Assembly (NCBI GenBank): GCA_022842645.1
Contig: JALHPE010000002.1
Span: 149,047 to 213,046, forward strand
DNA: 64,000 nt
Direction: 5' to 3'
Origin: Minisyncoccota bacterium
GTDB lineage: Bacteria; Patescibacteriota; Minisyncoccia; Phycocordibacterales; UBA2100
Every line of letters starts with the position of its first letter. The stretch's first letter is position 1. A program made the position numbers and the translations under genes. The notes under the pieces are model-generated. The model was not told the origin of the DNA, did no database searches, and was given only the letters and a program-made list of their open reading frames with translations. Below are positions 6,359 through 63,203 of this stretch, in pieces.

Positions 6359-6486
6359 ATGCAGGCATAGTGTAATATGAATTATCTTTACAGTAAAGAT
6401 AATATGTGGACAACGCAAACCGGGGTAGACATCTCTACGGATAAAGATACTTTGAAGTCCTGCTAAAGTTGTGGAAAGATACACAT

Positions 6487-6948
6487 ATGTCAGATATATC
6501 AAACAAACGACGTGAGGTGATGGAAGGCATGAGATCGTCTAATGAGACCGCGCTTAAGTTTTTGCGCATTTCGGCGGAACGTTCGGGCCTCCACCCTACC
6601 GATATGCGATCATTAGAGTTTCTTGCAAATAAAGAGGTTGCAACGGCGGGTGAACTATCGGCGTTTCTTGGCCTTACTTCGGGCGCAACAACGGCGCTTA
6701 TAAATCGTCTTGAAAAGCTCGAGATGATTGTTCGGAACGCAGATACCCACGACAAACGCATTATTCATATCCGCACGAATCCTCACAAGGCACTCACTCC
6801 CATGCTTCTCATGGGGCGGTTTATTAAGAAATTAGAGAAGTTTTTAGAAAAATATTCGGAGTCCGAGCTTGATGTAATCGCACGATGGAATGCCGACGTC
6901 GATGCCGCGTTTAAGAAAAGCACTGAAGATCTACTCAAATCGAAATAA
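6487..6948 (+). CDS. MarR-family transcriptional regulator
   Basis: Winged-HTH MarR-like sequence (ATAGELSAFLGLTSGATTALINRLEKLEMIVR...DKRI); divergent from the efflux operon. Confidence 0.65.
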   Translation: MSDISNKRREVMEGMRSSNETALKFLRISAERSGLHPTDMRSLEFLANKEVATAGELSAFLGLTSGATTALINRLEKLEMIVRNADTHDKRIIHIRTNPHKALTPMLLMGRFIKKLEKFLEKYSESELDVIARWNADVDAAFKKSTEDLLKSK

Positions 6949-7650: not shown

Positions 7651-7811
7651 TGCATTCGCATCACTACGATGCAGGCATGAACGTAGTAGGCGCACACATT
7701 GTCGTTGAACGACGCAGTGATTTAGTCATGTTAGTCATCCAGGCGAAGCATGTCAGCAGTTATATAAACTGCAATATAAATTGCTAGAAGTTCAAGAGGC
7801 AGGGACTATCC

Positions 7812-7878
7812 AAAATCGCGGTTACCAAACTCCCGTTTTGGGTATTACCGGATGCCCCCGATCGAAATTGGTAACCGC
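7812..7878. repeat. 11-13 bp inverted repeat ATCGCGGTTACCAA / TTGGTAACCGCGA enclosing a 41-nt loop
   Basis: Perfect inverted repeat read from the sequence, about 215 bp upstream of the HTH gene. Confidence 0.5.
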
Positions 7879-8092
7879 GAGAGTAGGATATGTCCCACAA
7901 CTTTATTAGCAGTCCGTCTCGTTAGCTAATGGATGTGGCCTATGAAAGACATTCGTATCTCACCTGAATTGTGGCATCCGTATCACGAGCCGGTTATCGC
8001 CTTACATGAGGTTTCTCAAGCTCTTGTGGCTTATCCTCCGGATAATCCGCATCTTGTACGACCTTTGGCGGTAATCGGCTCGTAGTCTTCCC

Positions 8093-8413
8093 ATGTATTC
8101 ATTCCCAGAACTAATCAAAAAAATACGAGAAGCGGCCGGCATGACGCAGGCCGATTTTGCGCGGGCGCTCGGCGTATCCGCCGTGCTAATTGCAATGGTG
8201 GAAACTGGGCAAAAAGAGGTTTCTAAAAATTTGCTTCGCAAAATTGCCGAGCAGTTAGATGTGCATCCGTCCTCCATAACACCTTTCCTGTTCGCGGATG
8301 AGAAAAAAGATACCCTGTCGCCAGTCGAGAAAAAGTTTATTCAGTGGGGCGAGCAACTACAGGAGCATTTGATAAAAGACCGTGCAAAACTTCTCAAAAA
8401 CCATGCGGCGTAG
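8093..8413 (+). CDS. XRE-family helix-turn-helix protein (Cro/C1-type)
   Basis: HTH_3-like GMTQADFARALGVSAVLIAMVETGQKEVSKNLLRKIAEQLDV; its stop overlaps the RT start (ccATGcggcgTAG). Confidence 0.7.
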   Translation: MYSFPELIKKIREAAGMTQADFARALGVSAVLIAMVETGQKEVSKNLLRKIAEQLDVHPSSITPFLFADEKKDTLSPVEKKFIQWGEQLQEHLIKDRAKLLKNHAA

Positions 8414-9401
8414 GCGATACCCAAAAATCCATATACAGAGCAAGAACGAGCTGGCAAAGCATATAGACAGCGCACGTCTCCCATATGAGAAAGCCCTGTC
8501 GCTCATAAACGATGTGCAAACTAACTTTGATACTTACTGGAAAGACCACCCTACGCAGTCCAAACCAGATAAACGTAAATGGGTACGAAATGCCGCAGGC
8601 ACACCTCTCGCACGGCTTCTTGATTTGATAAACGCAAAAGTTCTCACCCCCGCCGATCTGCTATTGCCAAGTTTCATCTTTGGCGGGATTGGCGGTTTGA
8701 ACCATAAAGCTGCCGTATTACATCTGCTCGGCAATAAGCGAAAACGGATTTTACTCAAACTAGATATAACGAGGTTTTTTGAGCAGATACGCCACGAGCG
8801 GGTCTATCACTTTTTCCGCGATAAGTGCAAATGCAGTGATAAGGGCGCAAAGATACTTGCTGACCTTTGCTGTGTCCGCCACGGCCCGAAGGAAAAACCG
8901 GACGCATATAAAACGATTGCTCGCGGCTTCGCCACTTCGTCGCGCCTTGCTGTCTGGTGCAATGTAGACACCTTCCTGCGCCTTGAGCGGCTTGTGCAAA
9001 AAGAATTGCGAGGCAAAGACCCCCGCATCGCCGTTTATGTAGACGACATCGGCATTACCGCAAGTAGGGCGTCGAAGGAGGATATGTTGCGGCTATATGT
9101 AAAAATAAAAACACTTTTGGAACAGGACAAGAATCAACCACTACCTCTAAACGACGACAAGACAAAAGTGATCTTCCATAGTGGCGAAACTTATGACAAA
9201 GACGGAAATTATCTTGGTAAATGGGCGTTTGAACATTTGGGCTTGCAGATGAATCGCAACTCCGTAACTATCGGTTCAAAAACGAGGGGAAAACTGGATA
9301 GAGCAACAAGCGAATTAGAAAAAAGTGATAAGAAAGACCAAACAACCAAACGACGCAGAGGAGCGTTCTTGAATTACAAACGGTATATCGAGGCAGAATA
9401 A
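8403..9401 (+). CDS. reverse transcriptase, retron-type-like
   Basis: RT motifs LLKLDITRFF (motif A Asp), RGFATSSRLA (retron QGxxxSPxLA-like), YVDDIG (YxDD), SVTIG (retron VTG-like). About 333 aa, the size of retron RTs. Overlaps the HTH gene by 11 nt. Confidence 0.75.
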   Translation: MRRRRYPKIHIQSKNELAKHIDSARLPYEKALSLINDVQTNFDTYWKDHPTQSKPDKRKWVRNAAGTPLARLLDLINAKVLTPADLLLPSFIFGGIGGLNHKAAVLHLLGNKRKRILLKLDITRFFEQIRHERVYHFFRDKCKCSDKGAKILADLCCVRHGPKEKPDAYKTIARGFATSSRLAVWCNVDTFLRLERLVQKELRGKDPRIAVYVDDIGITASRASKEDMLRLYVKIKTLLEQDKNQPLPLNDDKTKVIFHSGETYDKDGNYLGKWAFEHLGLQMNRNSVTIGSKTRGKLDRATSELEKSDKKDQTTKRRRGAFLNYKRYIEAE

Positions 9402-9649: not shown

Positions 9650-9841
9650 CGCCTCGGCAGCTATTTGCCGATAAGTACAAACTGCAATTAGGTGTTCGGC
9701 AGTAGTTCATTCGTGATATTTCTCAAGGTCTTCGATTAACTCTTCCGTGAGATTCCACAAAGTATCCCATTTTTGGGAACCTTCTGAATAATCGATTCGC
9801 GGCGCGGCCGCCTCGGCCTTTCGGCCGGAGAAGTATTACTT

Positions 9842-10018
9842 AGTGACTCTAGCGGGAATCGGCCAAGAGCTCGTTTTGATTCCGTCGAATCAAAACTCCT
9901 CTCGGCCCTGCTCGCGCGACCCGTTCTACTAAACGGGTGCCCGCGCTCCCTTTCGATTCCCGCTAGAGGTCTACAAAAATATAGTTGGCCGACACGATGT
10001 GTCGTCCTCGTTATTTTT
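9842..10018. repeat. tRNA-Glu 3'-end partial duplications: direct 19-bp copy GTGACTCTAGCGGGAATCG (9842-9860), inverted copy TTCGATTCCCGCTAGAG (9946-9962), and an intervening hairpin-rich ~158-bp segment
   Basis: Exact 19-mer shared with 10019-10037. The segment between contains the perfect hairpins GTTTTGATTC-CGTC-GAATCAAAAC and ACCCGTT-CTACTAA-AACGGGT. Confidence 0.6.
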
Positions 10019-10019
10019 G

Positions 10020-10091
10020 TGACTCTAGCGGGAATCGAACCCGCCTTCCATCCTTGAGAAGGATGTGTCCTAGCCGATAGACGATAGAGCC
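10020..10091 (-). tRNA. tRNA-Glu (anticodon CTC)
   Basis: Cloverleaf folds by hand: acceptor GGCTCTA/TAGAGTC, D-stem GTCT/GGAC, anticodon stem CATCC/GGATG with loop TTCTCAA, T-arm GCGGG-TTCGATT-CCCGC. Confidence 0.8.
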
Positions 10092-15139: not shown

Positions 15140-15222
15140 TTTGTAGACTGTAGTCTGTAGATTGTAGTTGAATGCATACGATTCCCGTCTTTAACTACAA
15201 ACTACTTTCTACAAACTACACA
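15140..15222. repeat. REP-like imperfect palindrome of TGTAGTTTGTAG/CTACAAACTACA units (copy 1)
   Basis: Left arm TTTGTAGACTGTAGTCTGTAGATTGTAGTT, right arm AACTACAAACTACTTTCTACAAACTACA. The 27-mer ACTACAAACTACTTTCTACAAACTACA is identical to 63157-63183. Confidence 0.7.
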
Positions 15223-15226
15223 CTGC

Positions 15227-16292: not shown

Positions 16293-16718
16293 TCAAAGAT
16301 CACTTTCTCCTGGACAAGCATTTCCTCCGTCTCTAGTCAGCGTAAAATTTCCCCCGTACAACTCCTCACCTTGCACACGCACGATAGTAAGCAGTATTGT
16401 TTCGCGCGCATCGATGTCTTTAGTGATTTCCTCGAATCGACGCAACGTCATGTTGTGTATAGGAACAGCATTGATACCAACAATCCTATCCCCAGCTCTA
16501 ATACCCTGTTTGTAGGGCGAGCTCCCGCAGAGCACAGAGATAATGATCACCTTCCCAATGAATATCTGCGCCGGGTCTACGTTTTCACAAGACTCCTTAT
16601 CGTTGCATACGAAATGCTCTTCGTAGCTGAATTGGAAGCCGAAGCTTGGTTTCGTGCTTTCTGCAGACGCCACTACTACCATCCCGAAAAGGAAGATCAG
16701 TGCGAAAAGTCGAGCCAT
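16293..16718 (-). CDS. secreted PDZ-domain protein
   Basis: Signal peptide MARLFALIFLFGMVVVASA; PDZ-like GIRAGDRIVGINAVPI. Confidence 0.55.
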   Translation of the reverse strand: MARLFALIFLFGMVVVASAESTKPSFGFQFSYEEHFVCNDKESCENVDPAQIFIGKVIIISVLCGSSPYKQGIRAGDRIVGINAVPIHNMTLRRFEEITKDIDARETILLTIVRVQGEELYGGNFTLTRDGGNACPGESDL

Positions 16719-16781
16719 GAGAACACCTCCTATTTTTACTCAACTACCCCCATCTAATCACCACGTATCGCTACGGGCAAG

Positions 16782-17312
16782 CTATATAACTTCTAAAGCC
16801 GGTGCCTCAGGAGACGACTCTTCAGTCGATGTCGGACTCTCTACTGGCGTCGATTCTTCAACTGATACGGGTTCAATTGGTTCCACTTCTTCCTGTGTCT
16901 CACTCGTCACATCAATGTCCTCGCTGGAAAGAGTATCTTGTGTCAGTTCTTGAGAGGCACCTTCTTCCGTCTGTTCAACGGACACAACCGCTTCGGACAC
17001 AGCACCACCAGAACCATCTCCACCACCCCCGCTCGAGGTTGGGTCTTCTGGGATCTCGGACCCTGCCTGATGTGGTGCCTCTTCTTCTTCGATAATCAAA
17101 TCTTCTGTCGTTGTACCGAGAACTGCAGCAAACATCATTTGCTCCGGAAGAACTGGCGGCGACCATTCACCTGCACGAAATACATTGCCAATGGAGCGTT
17201 CGATGTCACTAAAGTAGGAAATGGTTCCCCCTGCACCCCCTGCCATCATAGAAGACATGAAAACGAGTCCTAACACGAGCGCGGTTGATGTGCCGTAGGT
17301 GTCTTTATGCAT
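16782..17312 (-). CDS. possible nested or fused SipW-substrate protein (internal start MHKDTYGTSTALVLGLVF...)
   Basis: In-frame Met at 17310-17312, followed by a hydrophobic stretch and the AGGAGGT-ISYFSDIERSIGNVFRAG motif, then a low-complexity acidic tail; same frame as sipW with no intervening stop. Confidence 0.3.
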   Translation of the reverse strand: MHKDTYGTSTALVLGLVFMSSMMAGGAGGTISYFSDIERSIGNVFRAGEWSPPVLPEQMMFAAVLGTTTEDLIIEEEEAPHQAGSEIPEDPTSSGGGGDGSGGAVSEAVVSVEQTEEGASQELTQDTLSSEDIDVTSETQEEVEPIEPVSVEESTPVESPTSTEESSPEAPALEVI

Positions 17313-18008
17313 ACGAAATTGTGTGTGCCACCACTCCGCGTGCATGAACTGCGGCTTCATATACATTGGAATGAAAATCTCGTCCATCGCGCGTTCGCGT
17401 CCATAAAAGAGACGTAGAGGCGCACCCTCTTCATCCACTGAGCCTGCACCGCCTTTGGGCGTATCATCCTCGCCACGGCGTCTGCGCAGTGCCGCACGCG
17501 CTTCTTTTGCAATCGTGATTATCTCTTCAAGAATAATGAGTCCTGCTGGAAGTCCGATGAGAAGAGCAAAACCAAGCGGCTGGCGTGCAAAATCAAGCAC
17601 AAAGCCCGCGCCCGGCACATGTACCAATACTTTTCCTATCACTTCCCGCAGGGCCACAGAGTCTTGATCGATCTCCTCGTTCGCATCCCCCTTCGTGATG
17701 AAGATTCGTTCAGAGCCAGTGCCTTCCACAGCGACAATGCGGTGGGTGGTGGGAATCTCACTTGCGGTGTCGGGGCCAAAGGTGATTACGTCGCCAACGC
17801 TGTAAGAGAACGACGAGGAAGGCTTCACGATCACCAGTGAGCCCGTCGGAATCGCGGGCTCCATCGAACCCGATTTCACAATCTTAATCTCAATGTTCCC
17901 CGGAATCGGGAGCATCGAACCCACCAGAAGCCCCGCGACACCAAGGAGAGCCGCGATGAAAATAGTGGTGAAAAGTATGTTAATGAATTTGATCATATTA
18001 TCTTCCAA
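16782..18008 (-). CDS. sipW: signal peptidase I, archaeal/SipW type (S26B), with a ~240-aa in-frame C-terminal extension
   Basis: N-terminal TM, catalytic motifs KSGSMEP, THRIV and ITKGDAN, then a second TM. The extension contains ...ALVLGLVFMSSMMAGGAGGTISYFSDIERSIGNVFRAGEW (a SipW-cognate class signal motif) and an acidic S/T/E/P-rich tail. Confidence 0.8.
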   Translation of the reverse strand: MEDNMIKFINILFTTIFIAALLGVAGLLVGSMLPIPGNIEIKIVKSGSMEPAIPTGSLVIVKPSSSFSYSVGDVITFGPDTASEIPTTHRIVAVEGTGSERIFITKGDANEEIDQDSVALREVIGKVLVHVPGAGFVLDFARQPLGFALLIGLPAGLIILEEIITIAKEARAALRRRRGEDDTPKGGAGSVDEEGAPLRLFYGRERAMDEIFIPMYMKPQFMHAEWWHTQFRMHKDTYGTSTALVLGLVFMSSMMAGGAGGTISYFSDIERSIGNVFRAGEWSPPVLPEQMMFAAVLGTTTEDLIIEEEEAPHQAGSEIPEDPTSSGGGGDGSGGAVSEAVVSVEQTEEGASQELTQDTLSSEDIDVTSETQEEVEPIEPVSVEESTPVESPTSTEESSPEAPALEVI

Positions 18009-18993
18009 TCAAAAGCCGTATCTGGTTGATGATGTTGGTGGTCGAAGAGGTTGACGACGCGTTCCCTGTTATGACGGTTCCGCCGCCGCCCGCATAATTA
18101 CCGCCGGTATTCGAGCTTGAAGTTGTCGTTGAATTCACTACAGCATTGTTGTTCACGTTAATCGTGACGGGACCACCACAGCCTCCATTACACGCATATT
18201 CGCAGGTCGTCCCTTTCTTCACACAGGTGAATTTCTTGTTGTCTTTCACAGGGACAGCGCGGAATGAAATGTCGACTGAGAAGGAATCTGTTTGTGCTTC
18301 GTTACCCAAGACCGTCCCGTCACAAGTAATCGTCGCCGCGGGCACATTCACCACCAAATCTCCAGCGCACCACTCAATTCCGATGTAGCGTGTGCTTGAT
18401 GCGGTGAGCGGATTTCCTGTTTTCGAATCCGCAATCGCATAGGTCATCTGATTCAACACCTTTGTCGCCGCTTGTTTATTGGTCGACGTTCCGAAAAGTG
18501 GAATCTCCCCAACTTCAAAGATATTGTCTCCGTCGTCATACCAGCCGAAAAACTCTGTCCCATCAGCCAGTTCCCCCGAGTTCGCGCCGCCGGAATTGTC
18601 TGCAAGCAATTCCGGCTCATTTCTGCCGTTCTCTTTCTCCTTCAGTTTCTCAAAGTCCAAGCAGATCCACGCATCCTTATTCACGTGGAGTGAAATGGTC
18701 GCTTCGCCTCTGTCGCCTGGCTTCACGTCAGAAATGTTGAAGAATTTATCCGAGTGTGGATTGAGGTTTTTGAGATTCCACGTGGACGCGGGTTGGATGA
18801 CCCCATTCCACGAAGCCTTGCTGTCGATCTTCAGGTCAAACGCATTGCCCTTCTTACCTGTCGCAAAGGTGAATCCTGTCGCTTCTGTCCTAAACCCAAA
18901 CGCAAGCACCACCGCCGACATAACGAGGGCGGTGAATACTATGCGTGCTGAGAGTTTGAGACGAGACATATCGGTTTTCCAGCTAGAGTGCAC
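17998..18993 (-). CDS. TasA/camelysin-like secreted protein, paralog A (SipW-cognate signal class)
   Basis: Signal region ...AVVLAFGFRTEATGFTFATGKKGNAFDLKIDS; conserved FNISDVKPGDRGEATISLHVNKDAWIC and C-terminal WCAGD...TITCDGTVLGNEAQTDS...C module shared with paralogs B and C. Confidence 0.65.
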   Translation of the reverse strand: MHSSWKTDMSRLKLSARIVFTALVMSAVVLAFGFRTEATGFTFATGKKGNAFDLKIDSKASWNGVIQPASTWNLKNLNPHSDKFFNISDVKPGDRGEATISLHVNKDAWICLDFEKLKEKENGRNEPELLADNSGGANSGELADGTEFFGWYDDGDNIFEVGEIPLFGTSTNKQAATKVLNQMTYAIADSKTGNPLTASSTRYIGIEWCAGDLVVNVPAATITCDGTVLGNEAQTDSFSVDISFRAVPVKDNKKFTCVKKGTTCEYACNGGCGGPVTINVNNNAVVNSTTTSSSNTGGNYAGGGGTVITGNASSTSSTTNIINQIRLLIGR

Positions 18994-19021
18994 TCAGCCC
19001 TCTTGCATTCCTCGGTATCAC

Positions 19022-20386
19022 TTAGAGATCTACCACTTGATTCAAGCTCGCACACTGGAAGTTTGCGTTGTTGCGCTGTTGCACTGCGCTGAAGACGAGG
19101 CTGGAGGTAAGAATGTCCGTCTGCGCCACGTTGTAGGACGGACTCGTACCATCACAGGTAATCGAACCATCGCCATTCACTGTCTGTTCGCCGAAGCACC
19201 ATGCGCTTCCAAGATATGCGGTTGTTGTTGCCGTGAGCGGAAGACGCGTCATGCTAACGTTCTGAAAACCACCCGTGTAGAGCGAAGTCTCTCCACTTCC
19301 CGGCTCGTAGACCCCATCGCCGTCTGTATCCCCCCAGACAAAGAGTTTGATGAAATCTGAAAGCTCACCGTTTGGAATTCCGTCGAGGAGATCGTCCCCT
19401 GCTTCAATTTCTGGTTCGATCGGCGTATTTTCGTTATCGCTCACATTTTGCGTGAGCATACATGCGTATGCATCGTTGTCATACACGTGGAGCGAAATCA
19501 CGTTCGTGCCACGATCACCTGGCTTCACGTCGTTGAAGTTCCAGAACACATCGCCGTCGGCGAGATCTTTTTCACTCCAGAGTTTGCACTGACCGTTCGT
19601 GATGACCGTCTGACAATTGAGCTCTTGTACGCGGAAATCATCCACAAATGTACCCAGAGAGTTTGCAGTACCGAGGTCGGTAAAGCGTACGCGTGTGAGG
19701 TTTGTTGTTGCAGTCACCTGCACCGTTTCTTCCTGCCACGCAATCGGACCGCCGCCGCCCGCAACATTCCCTGTGTCATCAACAACCACACCACCCCACT
19801 GTATTTCGAGTCGATTGTCGGATGCAGGTGTGTTCGGACGTGGAGCAAACTTGTATTTAATAATGTAGTTCTTGCCCGGGACTGTCGGAATGTCTCTGTA
19901 GAACGAGACAGATGCTGGCTCCCCTTGCCCGCCATCGCTCGGACCTCCCCAATCAGTGTCGAGTTCTGCGTACTGGTCGCCCTCTGCCGCAGCGCCAACT
20001 ACATTCTCGTGATATTCCATCTTGGCGACGGCCGGACGATTTTGAGAACCGAACGTCGCCGGAATATCGCTACGCCACTCAACAGTCCACCCACCCGCAG
20101 GAGAATCGAAGATGTCCCACTGAGAACCGTTTGTCACTTCTGGATCTTCAAACCCTGCTCCCGAGATTGCTAAAAGATTCCCCGGCACTTCCACACACCC
20201 GTTCTGACACTCGTCTCCGTTATATGTCTGTCTGGTGTGGTCGATTTTCAGGTCGATCGCCCCTGCGGTGAACGTGTTTCCGGTCGAAGTTTCTGTATCG
20301 GAAAAGAACGCACTCGTGCCTGTCGCAACGGCACCTCCTGCCGAGACGATGAGGAGAAGCCCCAAAACTATTCTTGATATGTTCAT
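19022..20386 (-). CDS. TasA/camelysin-like secreted protein, paralog B, with an inserted beta-sandwich (carbohydrate-binding-like) domain
   Basis: AFFSDTETSTGNTFTAGAIDLKIDH signal motif; FNDVKPGDRGTNVISLHVYDNDAYAC; ~170-aa insertion ending ...TNLTRVRFTDLGTANSLGTFVDDFRV. Start chosen at ATG 20386 (the track uses an upstream GTG). Confidence 0.65.
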   Translation of the reverse strand: MNISRIVLGLLLIVSAGGAVATGTSAFFSDTETSTGNTFTAGAIDLKIDHTRQTYNGDECQNGCVEVPGNLLAISGAGFEDPEVTNGSQWDIFDSPAGGWTVEWRSDIPATFGSQNRPAVAKMEYHENVVGAAAEGDQYAELDTDWGGPSDGGQGEPASVSFYRDIPTVPGKNYIIKYKFAPRPNTPASDNRLEIQWGGVVVDDTGNVAGGGGPIAWQEETVQVTATTNLTRVRFTDLGTANSLGTFVDDFRVQELNCQTVITNGQCKLWSEKDLADGDVFWNFNDVKPGDRGTNVISLHVYDNDAYACMLTQNVSDNENTPIEPEIEAGDDLLDGIPNGELSDFIKLFVWGDTDGDGVYEPGSGETSLYTGGFQNVSMTRLPLTATTTAYLGSAWCFGEQTVNGDGSITCDGTSPSYNVAQTDILTSSLVFSAVQQRNNANFQCASLNQVVDL

Positions 20387-20402
20387 AATTGTTGTTTTTA
20401 AT

Positions 20403-20485
20403 GTCACGGATATTTCTTTGGTAAGAAATTCCGCAACCCCGCCTCAGCATCGACATGCTTCCGGCCTTGCGATGGGGCCCCGTCC
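20403..20485. promoter_or_regulatory. about 85-bp module, copy 1, with palindromic operator-like site GGATATTTCTTTGGTAAGAAATTCC (20408-20432) 25 nt upstream of the paralog B start
   Basis: Imperfect palindrome; the module is about 75% identical to 20585-20665. Confidence 0.5.
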
Positions 20486-20584
20486 CCATCTCACCCCCGA
20501 ATTTTTAATGTGGCGCTGAATCTTGTTCAGCTTGCCGAGCACCTCGTGAGATGCTCGACCTAGCTATCCAAGACCTTGCGGTGC

Positions 20585-20665
20585 GTCACGGATATTTCTT
20601 TGCTAAGAAATTCCGCGACCCCGCCTCGGAGCCAAGCTCCTCCGGCCTTGCGACGAGCCCCCGGC
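20585..20665. promoter_or_regulatory. about 85-bp module, copy 2, with palindrome GGATATTTCTTTGCTAAGAAATTCC (20590-20614)
   Basis: Direct duplicate of 20403-20485, 182 bp away. Confidence 0.5.
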
Positions 20666-20816
20666 TCGTCGCACCCGCCTGCCGGATTTTCAGCTCTTTG
20701 GAGCTGAAAATCCGGCGAAAGTACGGCTATACCCGAGCCTCATTCGTGCAATTTCGGGCGAAATTGCACGCAAGCTCGTTTTGACCCTATCTCCTCACAA
20801 CGCGCGTTGTGAGGAG
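20651..20816 (-). terminator. cluster of four consecutive perfect hairpins immediately downstream of the paralog C stop
   Basis: Perfect 26-nt palindrome CTCCTCACAACGCGCGTTGTGAGGAG (20791-20816); CGTGCAATTTCG/CGAAATTGCACG (20745-20770); CCGGATTTTCAGCTC-TTTG-GAGCTGAAAATCCGG (20682-20715); CGACGAGCC-CCC-GGCTCGTCG (20651-20671). Confidence 0.45.
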
Positions 20817-20840
20817 ATCCTGGGTCAGGCTAGAGAACTA

Positions 20841-21773
20841 CTAGCTCTGAGGATTGCAAGAGAAGTTCGGATTGTTTCGAGACTGCTCTACGTAGAATGT
20901 CAGGTCGGCATTCCATGAATCGGTTTGTGCTTCGTTGCCCATAGTCGCACCGTTACAAACGATTGGATTACCTGGAGTTGGAGTTCCAATATCGCCCGCA
21001 CACCATGCGAGACCAATGTAACTGGTTGAACCGCCCTCAATTGGGGTATCGCCACCCTCTGCAAGTGCCCACGTTGTGGCTGCGAGCGAGCTCGCAGAAA
21101 CGGGCCCACCAAGTGCTGTTTCGCCAAGTTCAAAGACGTTATCGCCGTCGTCTGTCCATGCGAAGAACTCAAGATTGGTGTCGAGATCTCCATTGTTAGG
21201 GGTTGCATCTTCCCCTACAAGACCTCCAGATTCATCTTCTGGCTCGGTAATGCTGTTATCAGCATCGCCAATGTTTGCAATCGATGCACACATCCATGCA
21301 TCATTGCTGCCGACGTGAATCGAGATGGTGTTTTCACCATTGTCGCCCGGCTTGATGTCATTGAAGTTAAAGAATTCATCCATGCCAAGTGTGTTTTCGC
21401 TCAGGTTACCCACTGGCCATGTGCCCGTACATGCCGAGCCTGCTGTTGGGAACTGCGCAGGATTTGCAAGATTGTATGCATCCCATTCAGTTTGCTCATT
21501 CATGTTTCCAGCTGCTACAGGAGAAGACGAAGCGTTCAGTGTCACACTCGTCTCTGGAATGTAGTGGTAGGTGGCACCAACGAGTGTGCAGACCATGCCG
21601 TTGTAATGAGCGACGCTATCGATCTGAAGATCAATATCGCCCGCTGTAAACGTATTTCCCGTCGACGTTTCCGTGTCGGAGAAGAATGCGCCCGTCGAGC
21701 TTACGACGACCGCGCCCACAAACACAATCATCGCAAGAGATGCGAGGATGCGTGTATTAAGAAGTGCTGTCAT
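20841..21773 (-). CDS. TasA/camelysin-like secreted protein, paralog C
   Basis: TM plus AFFSDTETSTGNTFTAGDIDLQIDS; FNDIKPGDNGENTISIHVGSNDAWMC; C-terminal WCAGD...IVCNGATMGNEAQTDS...C. Confidence 0.7.
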   Translation of the reverse strand: MTALLNTRILASLAMIVFVGAVVVSSTGAFFSDTETSTGNTFTAGDIDLQIDSVAHYNGMVCTLVGATYHYIPETSVTLNASSSPVAAGNMNEQTEWDAYNLANPAQFPTAGSACTGTWPVGNLSENTLGMDEFFNFNDIKPGDNGENTISIHVGSNDAWMCASIANIGDADNSITEPEDESGGLVGEDATPNNGDLDTNLEFFAWTDDGDNVFELGETALGGPVSASSLAATTWALAEGGDTPIEGGSTSYIGLAWCAGDIGTPTPGNPIVCNGATMGNEAQTDSWNADLTFYVEQSRNNPNFSCNPQS

Positions 21774-21892
21774 ATATTTGTAATTTCTATTACCTACTTT
21801 TCTAATAACTACTATCTAATTTCTATTTTTTAATGTGACTCCTTGTCGGGATCGACCGTCCGACTCCGCCAGCCGGCGGACGCTCACGACAA

Positions 21893-21942
21893 AGAGCCGC
21901 GTTTTTTTTATTGAATCAGAAAACAAACGCGGCTCGTCGCGA
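21893..21942. other. long hairpin CGAGCCGCGTTT...AAACGCGGCTCG (12-bp perfect stem) upstream of paralog C
   Basis: Read directly from the sequence. Confidence 0.4.
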
Positions 21943-21985
21943 TGAGCTTAGCTTGTAAACAAGTGATGGTGAGATACACCATGCG

Positions 21986-22169
21986 GGTGAACATGCCTTC
22001 ACGTTCCCCGCCGTGAGACACTTATAGAGTAATAGCACGCGTGAACACCTGTCAATTTTTTACACAACGTTTATTTCGGTGGAAAACTATGTGGACAACC
22101 TGTCAAAGGAGTGTGGATAGTCTAGGGGCGAAAAAAGTGTACAACGTGTGAACAAACCTGTGGAAAAGC
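21986..22169. promoter_or_regulatory. array of direct repeats GTG(A/G)ACA(A/C)(A)CCTGT(C/G)(A/G)A with about 50-bp periodicity
   Basis: GGGTGAACATGCC (21986-21998), GTGAACACCTGTCAA (22041-22055), GTGGACAACCTGTCAA (22091-22106), GTGTACAACGTG plus GTGAACAAACCTGTGGAA (22137-22165). Confidence 0.45.
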
Positions 22170-22285
22170 TCTTTATTATGATATTGACATAAGGTAAAAC
22201 ACCACGGGCTACTTGCGCACTTTTCTAAGAGGTATGCCGTGAAGGCAGTGCCTACATTCCGTGGGACACAGCAAAGGAGAGTGTC

Positions 22286-22372
22286 ATGGAAGTATTGGGA
22301 ATGGAATGGTATTTGTGGCTCGCCCTGGCGATTATAGTGTGGTTCATCTACCACGTCGTCAAACCTGGGTGA
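22286..22372 (+). CDS. 28-aa hydrophobic micro-protein MEVLGMEWYLWLALAIIVWFIYHVVKPG
   Basis: SD AAAGGAGA 7 nt upstream of the ATG; single predicted TM; followed by hairpin GCCGCCTCGAG-AGCTTGC-CTCGAGGCGG. Confidence 0.4.
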   Translation: MEVLGMEWYLWLALAIIVWFIYHVVKPG

Positions 22373-22505
22373 TGTCGCGCCGCCTCGAGAGCTTGCCTCG
22401 AGGCGGTTCTGCATTGAGCACATCATGCTCGACAAGAAAAAGGTACGGGTGTAGGGTTACTCACTGGCATGCGCGCATACCTGTAGCAAAGGGAGAAGAA
22501 AGACA

Positions 22506-23330: not shown

Positions 23331-23355
23331 AATCCTCCCCTGCGGGAGGATTTTT
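23331..23355 (+). terminator. rho-independent terminator after tRNA-Ala
   Basis: AATCCTCCC-CTGC-GGGAGGATT followed by TTT. Confidence 0.6.
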
Positions 23356-23572
23356 GGCGCTGTGGAAAGCGGAGCGTTATGAGGCCAGTAGGCCGAATCG
23401 CGAGCTAGGGTCGTGGAATTTTTTGAGCGACGGCGAGAAAAATATCCCTGACCACATACTGGAGGGCGCAAACGATGTCGCATCAGCATATGCGACCGTG
23501 CGCCGGGGTCGCGAAAAAATTCGTCCGGCGGGACGAATTTTATTTGTGACCACAACCTGCAATCTTTTTCCC

Positions 23573-53208: not shown

Positions 53209-53261
53209 ACAAGACGAGACGGCCGAATATTCGGCCGTCTTTTTGTACACAAAAGCAACGT

Positions 53262-54984: not shown

Positions 54985-55108
54985 CATTCGGATGATTATA
55001 CCGAAGCTCACCCCTTGAGGGAAGCTTGGGGGCAACTGGCTCAAATGGCGCCATATGAGCCAGTTGCCCGAGACATGCTAGGATGCGCCTGTGACCGACT
55101 ACCCCATG

Positions 55109-57297: not shown

Positions 57298-57546
57298 TCA
57301 AAGCACCTGGCTTCTGACAAGTGTTATTTTCTGAGACCGTGATAGTTTTTTAATTGCCGCTTCGCGCTTCGATGCACTGCTTCGGTTTCGTTTTCGTTCG
57401 AGATACATGATTGTTCCCGCACGTTTTGCACGCGTATATTTTGCTCCTTTCCCGCGTTTATGTTCATCGAGTCGGCGCACTACATCGGTCGTTATACCGC
57501 AGTAGAGCGAGCCATCGTTGCATTTGAGAAGATAGACGAAATACAT
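57298..57546 (-). CDS. GIY-YIG nuclease family protein (UPF0213-like)
   Basis: MYFVYLLKCNDGSLYCGITTDVVRRLDEH. Confidence 0.7.
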   Translation of the reverse strand: MYFVYLLKCNDGSLYCGITTDVVRRLDEHKRGKGAKYTRAKRAGTIMYLERKRNRSSASKREAAIKKLSRSQKITLVRSQVL

Positions 57547-57774
57547 ACTGCGCCTGTATCAATAGATTACTACTTTTGCTGAACCTGTATATGAACTACT
57601 GGGGAAGAATGATGCGGAGCATCTTTCTTCCGGTTTTTCCAGTCACGCATATTCGCCTGGTGACGAATTGCGCGACCCCATCTCGGCGCCGTCGCGCCTG
57701 CGATCTTGCGAAGTTGCTCAGCAACTTCTCACCTTCCTCCACGGGAAAACAAGATGTTTTCCCGACCCCTTTCT

Positions 57775-57841
57775 CGTTCGAATCCAGGTCGGAGTGTGCG
57801 CAGGCACACTCCTTCCGGCAATAAAACGCCATGCTCTTTTA
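57775..57841. repeat. inverted partial copy of the tRNA-Gln T-arm/acceptor (CGTTCGAATCCAGGTCGGA) plus hairpins downstream of tRNA-Gln
   Basis: GGAGTGTG-CGCAGGC-CACACTCC hairpin; CCGGCAATAAAA...TTTTATTGCCGG perfect 12-bp stem overlapping the tRNA 3' end. Confidence 0.5.
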
Positions 57842-57912
57842 TTGCCGGACCTGGATTCGAACCAGGATAGAGAGCTTCAAAGGCTCCAGTCCTACCATTA
57901 GACGATCCGGCA
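57842..57912 (-). tRNA. tRNA-Gln (anticodon TTG)
   Basis: TGCCGGA acceptor, D-arm GTCT-AATGGTA-GGAC, anticodon stem GGAGC/GCTCT with loop CTTTGAA, T-arm CCTGG-TTCGAAT-CCAGG. Confidence 0.75.
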
Positions 57913-63107: not shown

Positions 63108-63183
63108 GTGTAGAGGGTAGTTTGTAGTGTGTAGTAATACAAAAACCCGACTTATTACTACAAACTACTTTCTACAAACTACA
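63108..63183. repeat. REP-like imperfect palindrome, copy 2 (same family as 15140-15222)
   Basis: GTAGTTTGTAGTGTGTAGTAAT ... ATTACTACAAACTACTTTCTACAAACTACA. Confidence 0.7.
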
Positions 63184-63203
63184 GACCGTGCAATCATAGC
63201 ACT

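Follow-up and report, generated by a model that had tools for sequence, protein, structure and literature searches.

The closest known kinds of element to the one described here are REP (repetitive extragenic palindromic) and REPIN elements and the in-frame palindromic elements of the Rickettsia type. REP elements stabilise upstream mRNA, as for malE-malF in Escherichia coli, and the substrates of both REP and IS200/IS605 systems have a strand-specific fold with an extrahelical base. Here we examine a 64-kb stretch of Patescibacteria DNA (contig JALHPE010000002.1, positions 149,047 to 213,046; hereafter the window), in which the spacer between two TasA/camelysin-like genes, paralogues C and B, carries two similar modules and a stack of perfect hairpins. 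A preliminary description had read these as a dedicated repressor-operator pair with a terminator or attenuator stack or, alternatively, as a small structured RNA duplicated in tandem. We find that the two modules belong to a previously undescribed, dispersed family of structured repeats and are not a gene-specific repressor site. The observations behind the preliminary description stand, the operator does not, the terminator stack is unsupported in its canonical form, and the structured-RNA alternative is nearest to the present finding. No described equivalent was met in the literature searched, including searches for the element's own nucleotide and peptide strings. We consider it probable that this is a REP-like or Rickettsia palindromic element (RPE)-like structured family of insertional origin, which would act here as a local, RNA-level 3'-end barrier.

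Two modules and a dispersed family of structured repeats

Copies were detected with two covariance models, R1 for the minimal core of the element and R2 built from long, window-type copies only. The window contains five copies, three full and two weaker, at three intergenic loci:

20403..20495, minus strand: module 1, full three-hairpin copy in the C-B spacer (R1 67.4 bits, R2 102.9 bits)
20585..20675, minus strand: module 2, full three-hairpin copy in the C-B spacer (R1 69.6 bits, R2 102.6 bits)
57642..57733, minus strand: third full copy, 3' of tRNA-Gln and 5' of a GIY-YIG gene (R1 32.2 bits, R2 104.1 bits)
23345..23452, plus strand: probable diverged copy without P2, 3' of tRNA-Ala (R2 26.3 bits, E ~5e-4; R1 21 bits)
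23461..23550, plus strand: probable diverged tandem copy (R2 18.7 bits, E ~0.02)

Modules 1 and 2 are identical in 73 of 93 columns over their full length (78%), in agreement with the roughly 75% reported before, and the direct-repeat blocks 20403-20445/20585-20627 and 20460-20482/20641-20663 reach 95% and 87%, respectively. The starts previously assigned to them (20403 and 20585) were right, but the ends were placed too early, the units being ~10 nt longer and including the whole third hairpin; the end of module 1 at 20403 lies 16 nt, not 25 nt, from the paralogue B ATG at 20386. The supposed near-palindromic operator, GGATATTTCTTTG(G/C)TAAGAAATTCC, does occur twice in 64 kb, also with 3 mismatches allowed (0 expected from 100 shuffles), but it lacks true dyad symmetry: its arms are unequal, and the additional T on the plus strand is the bulged A of a hairpin on the minus strand. 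Other copies of the family lie after tRNA genes and in coding sequences, not at the promoters of a regulon. Module 2 is made up of H3 (UGCGA...UCGCA), P2 (GCC/GGC with a nested hairpin) and P3 (GUCGCGGAAUUUCUU-AGCA-AAGAAAU[A]UCCGUGAC). The differences between the modules are compensatory and fall in two hairpins (AGCAT...ATGCT versus GGAGC...GCTCC, and GATGGGG...CCCCATC versus GACGAGCC...GGCTCGTC), which favoured a single-strand element with structure over a dyad bound by protein.

Related copies were sought in GTDB representative genomes, among which the source genome apparently is not included, using the hairpin pattern GGAATTTCTTNNNNAAGAAATAT. Only three of the 45 loci returned (L026, L027 and L052, all from Patescibacteria; loci on other contigs are given L numbers) are related, and these share far more than the pattern; the other matches are mostly chance or coding sequence in unrelated phyla, including a conserved gene segment of Lactobacillales. 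A metagenome scan with a second pattern added 4 loci, the first pattern (a 30-mer including GTGAC) having found no match, and neither the viral contig scan nor phage blastn returned a match to the element. The GTDB and metagenome loci define a minimal 57-nt core, CCUUGCGAGGCUGACUGAGCCGAGCACGAGGAAUUUCUUAGCAAAGAAAUAUCCGUG, and the element accordingly ranges from ~57 nt in its minimal form to ~92 nt in its window form; minimal-type copies are each bounded by their own inverted repeats of 10-28 bp, unrelated between loci. With R2, the three full copies of the window reach 102-104 bits and minimal-type copies are cross-detected (17.6-31.9 bits, E 4e-5 to 0.054). About 15 further copies lie on other Patescibacteria contigs, with carriers in L015, L026, L027, L052, L061-L068 and L070: R1 found second copies in L063 and L066 as well as copies in four rseP orthologues, and R2 found an intermediate-type copy with 22-nt arms in the spacer between TasA paralogues 2 and 3 of L070. 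The L015 copy also lies in a related TasA operon, but in a different spacer. With Rfam 15, only tRNAs were recognised in the window at the gathering threshold, and permissive searches gave nothing relevant at E<=10 for 20300-20900 or at E<=1 for L019, L026, L027 and L052.

Three parts make up the fold. P3 is a hairpin containing a bulged A and a loop of AGCA or ACCA; P2 is a short helix, at the tip of which a nested variable hairpin can be present; and the third part is either the local 5' hairpin H3 (this genome) or a closing stem formed from copy-specific flanking inverted repeats (other genomes). In an alignment of 17 copies, 88% of cells at paired positions do pair, compared with 36-57% when the partners are slid; compensatory, double-sided changes are found in 8 of the 17 pairs (5 of 11 in P3), and none of 500 shuffles reached the observed covariation score. 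Distal P3 pairs change from CUU/AAG to CCU/AGG, UUC/GAA, UUU/AAA or CGUC/GGCG, and P2 alternates between GCC/GGC, GGC/GCC and AUC/GAU. The bulged A is invariant in all 17 aligned copies and every one has the AGCA or ACCA loop, an apparent invariance of P3 that is inflated because most copies were found from an exact 23-24-mer. The copy after tRNA-Gln, preceded by three perfect hairpins, has had its P3 and P2 stems rewritten by compensatory changes with the bulged A and an ACCA loop retained, and in the 23461-23550 copy P3 is fully covaried (GGGGUCGCGAAAAAAUUCGUCC-GGCG-GGACGAAUUUU[A]UUUGUGAC). A stand-alone 82-aa GIY-YIG nuclease-domain gene (57298-57546, minus strand) lies directly 3' of the tRNA-Gln copy.

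One strand is favoured throughout. In the minimum free energy (MFE) structures of 19 copies, G·U pairs number 37 for the element strand against 5 for its complement, and the element strand has the lower MFE in 17 of the 19; in the C-B spacer it is the mRNA sense strand. Two resemblances to catalytic RNAs were considered and rejected: as a group II intron domain V, P3 has no AGC triad, no GNRA loop and a 1-nt instead of a 2-nt bulge, while the string behind a hammerhead-like reading, CUGACGAG, is found in one copy only, with no GAAA after a stem II.

Comparison of related loci shows the element to have the distribution of an insertion. The C-B spacers of L011 and L012 (protein C 80% identical) and of L014 (72%) contain no module, and in L015 the C-B spacer is likewise without one, its copy lying one spacer further on. 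L011 and L012 have identical spacer DNA, the apparent difference in spacer length between them being due to gene calling only. In other genomes the element is inserted in frame in five genes (Dus, RseP, ComEC-like, TsaD and Fmt), where it encodes the peptide (C/S)TDISLLRNSS.S.QS.SQG, in the same orientation and frame in all five; the inserted peptide is hydrophilic and sits in variable linkers. The rseP insertion is common to syntenic orthologues (65-71% protein identity) and missing from others, and in the syntenic relative L072 both the rseP and the fmt sites are empty, with no copy in 21 kb. When the arms and core are removed together from rseP, the empty-site protein sequence is restored, so that the arms belong to the insertion and are not inverted copies of the target, a possibility we had also considered. 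Filled and empty rseP sites differ by no clear target-site duplication, there being at most a 3-nt repeat (TCG) at one junction. Across rseP orthologues, pairing of the arms persists at no more than 28-89% identity, and there is covariation in P2 and P3. Taken with the G·U bias, this pattern favours selection acting on the fold at this locus over neutral decay of a dead insertion.

Other palindrome-like peptide insertions, for example SPSPLLVQEGEGAGFPSPEQGEGGRR, occur in the RseP linker after FGENYE in the homologues P0129, P0219 and P0230 from other lineages (alignment A3, columns 75-115), which suggests that this linker is a hot spot for insertion of hairpin elements. In L066, a diversity-generating retroelement (DGR; bAvd and reverse transcriptase, 7736-9117) lies just 5' of the RRF-RseP genes, and both rseP and fmt carry the element; other carriers have no DGR, so there is no evident link.

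The orientation of copies depends on where they lie. All five copies in coding sequences are antisense to the host gene, as are both copies between grpE, dnaK and dnaJ in L063, and all seven copies 3' of genes or between TasA paralogues are sense (SOD, EF-P, tRNA-Gln, tRNA-Ala, C, and the L015 and L070 paralogues); the five window copies are all co-oriented with the upstream gene. This tally, from a small sample, fits a polar element whose sense orientation is harmful within transcription units. For in-gene copies, orientation may in addition have been set by the reading frames available (one of three open in sense and two of three in antisense) and by tolerance of the encoded peptide.

The spacer scaffold, its hairpins and the TasA-like operon

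Paralogue C, the spacer, paralogue B, a third paralogue, a SipW-like peptidase gene and a PDZ gene form an apparent minus-strand operon, in which the order on the mRNA is C stop, hairpins, module 2, module 1 and B start. The features are as follows:

20841..21773, minus strand: paralogue C, 310 aa, TasA/camelysin-like with a SipW-type signal peptide; stop at 20841-20843
454 nt between paralogues C and B, minus strand: C-B spacer
20782..20827, minus strand: scaffold hairpin 1, outer stem TGACCC/GGGTCA, common to orthologues
20734..20778, minus strand: scaffold hairpin 2, outer stem CGAGCU/GGCUCG, with a nested perfect 12-bp hairpin at 20745-20770
20681..20716, minus strand: perfect 16-bp hairpin at a positionally kept site between TAGCCGTA and GCGGGCTG
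20649-20673, minus strand: perfect 11-bp stem within module 2
20521..20574, minus strand: unique long hairpin between the modules, beginning CCGCAAGG, from the fold
20494..20531, minus strand: ancestral scaffold, hairpin GCTGAACAAGATTCAGC followed by GCCACATTAAAAATTCGGGGG, kept in L011, which reads GCTGTATCAAAACAGCGCCACATTAAAAGATCGGGGG
19022..20386, minus strand: paralogue B, 454 aa, TasA/camelysin-like; ATG at 20386
17998-18993, minus strand: third TasA/camelysin-like paralogue
16782-18008, minus strand: SipW-like signal peptidase
16293-16718, minus strand: PDZ protein

The N-terminus of paralogue C, the probable major TasA-like subunit, matches Pfam Peptidase_M73, and homologues of the protein are named as TasA family or SipW-dependent peptides of Nomurabacteria or Paceibacterota; the N-terminus of paralogue B can be aligned to those of C and of its L011 orthologue. 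Housekeeping genes of the window include mraZ, rsmH, uvrC and ddl.

The spacer is exceptionally structured. Both of its strands fold far better than shuffled sequence, the minus strand at -235 kcal/mol (z = -11.8) and the plus strand at -206 kcal/mol (z = -11.2), the minus (mRNA) strand being ~29 kcal/mol the more stable. All four perfect stems previously placed after C were recovered (20649-20673, 20681-20716, 20745-20770 and 20789-20818), and among the 22 perfect hairpins with a stem of at least 9 bp in the whole window they are the longest. The 26-nt perfect palindrome reported there lies within a 30-nt perfect palindrome, 20789-20818, which is specific to this lineage and occupies the loop of scaffold hairpin 1; at the same site L011 and L015 have TTTGACCC-loop-GGGTCAAA, without a nested palindrome, and at scaffold hairpin 2 orthologues have GAGCC-loop-GGCTC. 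Two of the window's perfect stems are lineage-specific palindromes nested in the loops of ancestral hairpins.

These hairpins belong to an older scaffold that follows TasA paralogues and reads, in order, stop, TCTCTAGCC, a variable hairpin, CGGGCTG-loop-CAGC, CATTAMAA..TCGGGGG, AATTA and ATG. The hairpin at 20681-20716 occupies its variable position: in L015 the base of the stem is unchanged and the tip carries compensatory changes, and L014, L011 and L070 have unrelated hairpins there. In every related spacer examined (L011, L014 and two spacers each of L015 and L070), a hairpin of variable sequence is found at the same post-stop position of the scaffold, which suggests a role at the RNA 3' end. 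Module 2, module 1 and the L015 copy stand at three separate points on the scaffold, and module 1 is 77% identical to the L015 copy and 78% identical to module 2. These positions and identities argue against a recent local duplication and indicate that modules 1 and 2 are independent insertions. The suggestion of a tandemly duplicated small structured RNA therefore survives as a structured element on the sense strand, but the duplication gives way to membership of a dispersed family. A decayed third module at 20521-20584 was considered but is unsupported: neither covariance model detects one, and there is no significant minus-strand match. At all three window loci (C-B, tRNA-Gln and tRNA-Ala), hairpin stacks precede or accompany the modules.

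A motif, (C)ACATTAAAAA, occurs on the minus strand at 20395-20404, 20502-20511 and ~21836, that is, 5' of the B and C starts and in mid-spacer, and is kept in the orthologue L011; it may be a signal for translation initiation or processing, these genes having no obvious Shine-Dalgarno sequence. Short-read (Logan) contigs of the same organism with gene C (L001-L010) were compared with window positions 20707-21923. Nine of the ten contigs shown stop within the perfect palindromes 20681-20716 or 20789-20818, so these palindromes break de Bruijn graph assemblies. The Logan runs SRR28154518-30 contain the organism.

Further palindromes and repeats lie elsewhere. An intergenic, perfect 24-nt zero-loop palindrome at 53217-53240, AGACGGCCGAATATTCGGCCGTCT, is of the same kind as 20789-20818. 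A second small palindromic family, centred on TGGCTCAAATGGCGCC, occurs once in the window (55030-55069), in L011 (2125-2205) and in L015 (1395-1480), and in the C-B spacers of the relatives it forms a three-hairpin block. On the minus strand, an inverted copy of the tRNA-Glu 3' end comes after that gene, with a direct copy behind it (CGATTCCCGCTAGAGTCAC, 9840-10040), and tRNA-Gln has after it an inverted copy of its own 3' end, interrupted by a hairpin (57775-57842); both look like small direct-inverted-direct duplications or integration remnants. Adjoining tRNA-Glu on the plus strand (8093-9401), two overlapping genes encode a helix-turn-helix (HTH) protein (8093-8413) and a 339-aa reverse transcriptase (8382-9401); their best PADLOC matches are HTH_VI and RT_VI of retron type VI, with no ncRNA identified. 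In L071, a Y1_Tnp (RAYT/IS200-like) gene at 16929-17680 has GTCAAGGTYSRACCTTGAC hairpins on both sides and the same hairpin in frame inside it, and lies directly 3' of a TasA-like operon. A 30-nt intergenic direct repeat, ACTACAAACTACTTTCTACAAACTACA(C/G)AC, is 97% identical between 15194-15223 (mraZ/rsmH) and 63157-63186 (serS/dprA-like).

A proposed local 3'-end barrier and its alternatives

On the explanation that we favour, copies would have entered the C-B spacer by insertion at different points of the older scaffold, as those positions and the absence of copies from the nearest relatives indicate, and pairing in their stems would then have been maintained through evolution. Locally, the likeliest effect would be on RNA, where sense-strand copies lie amid stable hairpins directly 3' of C. 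Modules and hairpin stack together would form a 3'-end barrier, through termination, processing or protection from 3' exonucleases, that could uncouple C transcript levels from those of the downstream genes B, A and the SipW-like peptidase. That the stack forms or protects the 3' end of the C transcript is made plausible by the analogy with REP and other intercistronic stabiliser hairpins. The data establish that the modules belong to the family, together with its fold, its strand bias and its insertion-like distribution; we infer an RNA-level role, and what is said here of a recognising protein and of the mode of spread is likewise conditional.

Several points weigh against this explanation. 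No U-tract follows any hairpin of the spacer (a terminator scan of 16500-22500 placed 0 sites in 20387-20840 on either strand), inspection of the sequence finds no T run 3' of any spacer stem, and promoter prediction for the spacer's minus strand gave no sigma-70-like site, so that canonical termination and a promoter borne by the module are unsupported; what stands of the terminator or attenuator stack proposed earlier is the post-stop hairpin conserved in position in related spacers. The module is not required for operon function, since the close relatives L011 and L014 do without it. A general function as sense RNA is impossible, because the copies in coding sequences and between grpE, dnaK and dnaJ are antisense, and at rseP the structural constraint acts on the strand antisense to the mRNA. 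RNA and single-stranded DNA (ssDNA) forms are indistinguishable here, because G·T pairs are tolerated in ssDNA too. No mobilising enzyme was found near any copy, the sample amounts to ~20 copies, most of them found from the exact 23-24-mer, and the local RNA role is read from DNA sequence.

The operator model for B, with a dimeric repressor and an intrinsic terminator or attenuator stack, gains something from the end of module 1 lying 16 nt 5' of the B start, from the extreme structure of the spacer and from a MarR-family gene in the window (6469-6948), although that gene is unlinked to the locus. We regard it as highly improbable. The supposed operator is an asymmetric bulged hairpin in which pairing and not sequence is kept, the sequence being swapped by compensatory changes in other copies; the constraint is strand-specific, and copies occur after tRNA genes and in coding sequences. 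The closest orthologous spacers (L011/L012 and L014) have no module, an outcome that the preliminary description had itself named as refuting and that tells against a locus-specific operator, and neither a sigma-70-like promoter nor a U-tract hairpin was found on the spacer's minus strand. A selfish ssDNA hairpin element, REP/REPIN-like or derived from IS200/IS605, non-autonomous and mobilised by a Y1 (HUH) transposase of the REP-associated (RAYT) type, would have no host function at the C-B spacer, and the hairpin stacks would be accumulated insertions and footprints. It accommodates the strand-specific fold with a conserved extrahelical base, the dispersed copies that differ in presence among relatives, and the in-frame gene insertions resembling Rickettsia palindromic elements; the Y1_Tnp gene with its own hairpin repeats in L071, a related Paceibacteria contig, places REP/RAYT-type systems in the group, and the zero-loop palindromes and inverted tRNA 3'-end copies point to generation of palindromes at the DNA level. 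We nevertheless think it unlikely, since six-frame translation of the 64-kb window and the copy-bearing loci contains no Y1 PNHxH (HUH) motif, the GTAG/CGTC tag of REP superfamilies was not found in aligned copies, a conserved centre with copy-specific arms is the reverse of a MITE (miniature inverted-repeat transposable element) or REPIN, filled and empty rseP sites give no clear target-site duplication, and copy-by-copy compensatory evolution at an orthologous site is unexpected for dead copies.

Still less likely, in our judgement, is a new class of functional RNA (for example a small ribozyme or a protein-binding RNA) or a SINE-like retroelement template copied by a host reverse transcriptase, of which the copies would be genes or cDNA insertions. 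Functional RNAs typically show covariation, conserved nucleotides that stay unpaired and a bias to G·U, Rfam 15 has no match, a retron-type reverse transcriptase lies in the window and a DGR in L066, and for in-gene copies the structured strand is that of the would-be RNA template; but the copies yielded neither a promoter nor a poly(A)-like tail nor a clear target-site duplication, they have no linked reverse transcriptase, CUGANGA, the hammerhead-like string, is confined to one copy and Rfam ribozyme families do not match. For a structured RNA in general, the covariation and G·U bias are strong, but the favoured strand is sense to the neighbouring gene at some loci and antisense at others. 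We also entertain, as a rather doubtful proposition, a new structured nucleic-acid element whose fold would be selected at each locus, even antisense in essential genes. In one version it would be a Patescibacteria-specific polar signal for RNA 3' ends or termination without a U-tract, tolerated within transcription units in antisense orientation only; in another, it would be a new mobile element of retro- or HUH type in its RNA or ssDNA form, with nearby perfect palindromes as its footprints and with closing stems specific to each copy created at insertion or by later evolution.

Significance and comparison with known systems

Patescibacteria genomes are very small, with little non-coding DNA, which makes it unexpected to find the element in several spacers per 64 kb and in frame in rseP, tsaD, fmt and dus. 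Should the element be a signal for RNA 3' ends, it would bear on the way in which transcripts of these organisms are ended or protected where canonical terminators are lacking, and on the ratio of subunits expressed from a TasA-like fibre operon. As a mobile element it would be of a new type, conserved at its centre and variable in its arms, and would explain spurious peptide insertions and broken assemblies in the candidate phyla radiation (CPR). In either case the covariance models allow copies to be annotated, so that they are neither mistaken for operators nor spanned by open reading frame calls.

Dimeric-repressor operators share with the locus a ~25-bp inverted repeat near a start codon, but here that repeat is bulged, conserved in pairing and not in sequence, strand-specific, and present in genes and after tRNAs. 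Closer likenesses are found with the stabiliser or terminator hairpins of papBA, puf and malEFG-REP, in that a stable stack follows directly on a probable major-subunit gene; here the position of the hairpin is conserved and its sequence varies. Unlike those hairpins, the stack has no U-tracts, includes perfect zero-loop palindromes resembling DNA-level events, and is known from its DNA.

As with REP, the bacterial interspersed mosaic elements (BIMEs) and REPIN, the copies are short, fold strand-specifically, are often clustered, lie mostly at gene 3' ends or between cistrons and are long-lived, and the presence of many dispersed, mainly extragenic copies folding on one strand (five at three intergenic loci in the window) is likewise REP-like. 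They differ in having no GTAG/CGTC tag beside P3 or the whole element, and in their three-helix architecture, conserved centre, variable arms and in-frame gene copies. No RAYT gene was found in the 64-kb window or near copies, and the RAYT-like gene of L071 has a different repeat. Shared terminal inverted repeats, the mark of a MITE, were not found, the arms being copy-specific and the centre conserved. With RPE of Rickettsia, and with the small palindromic elements of Coxiella and the Correia elements of Neisseria, the family has in common that copies are both intergenic and inserted in frame in housekeeping genes, to which they add a peptide. The likeness is one of behaviour only, in a different phylum and with unrelated sequence, and unlike RPE and in-frame MITEs the element has no conserved terminal inverted repeats, shows no clear target-site duplication, keeps one orientation and frame in all five in-gene copies and has stems that covary at an orthologous site. 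What sets the family apart from the REP/REPIN and Rickettsia-type elements is a three-helix core with conserved unpaired nucleotides, closing stems specific to each copy, and covariation at an orthologous site.

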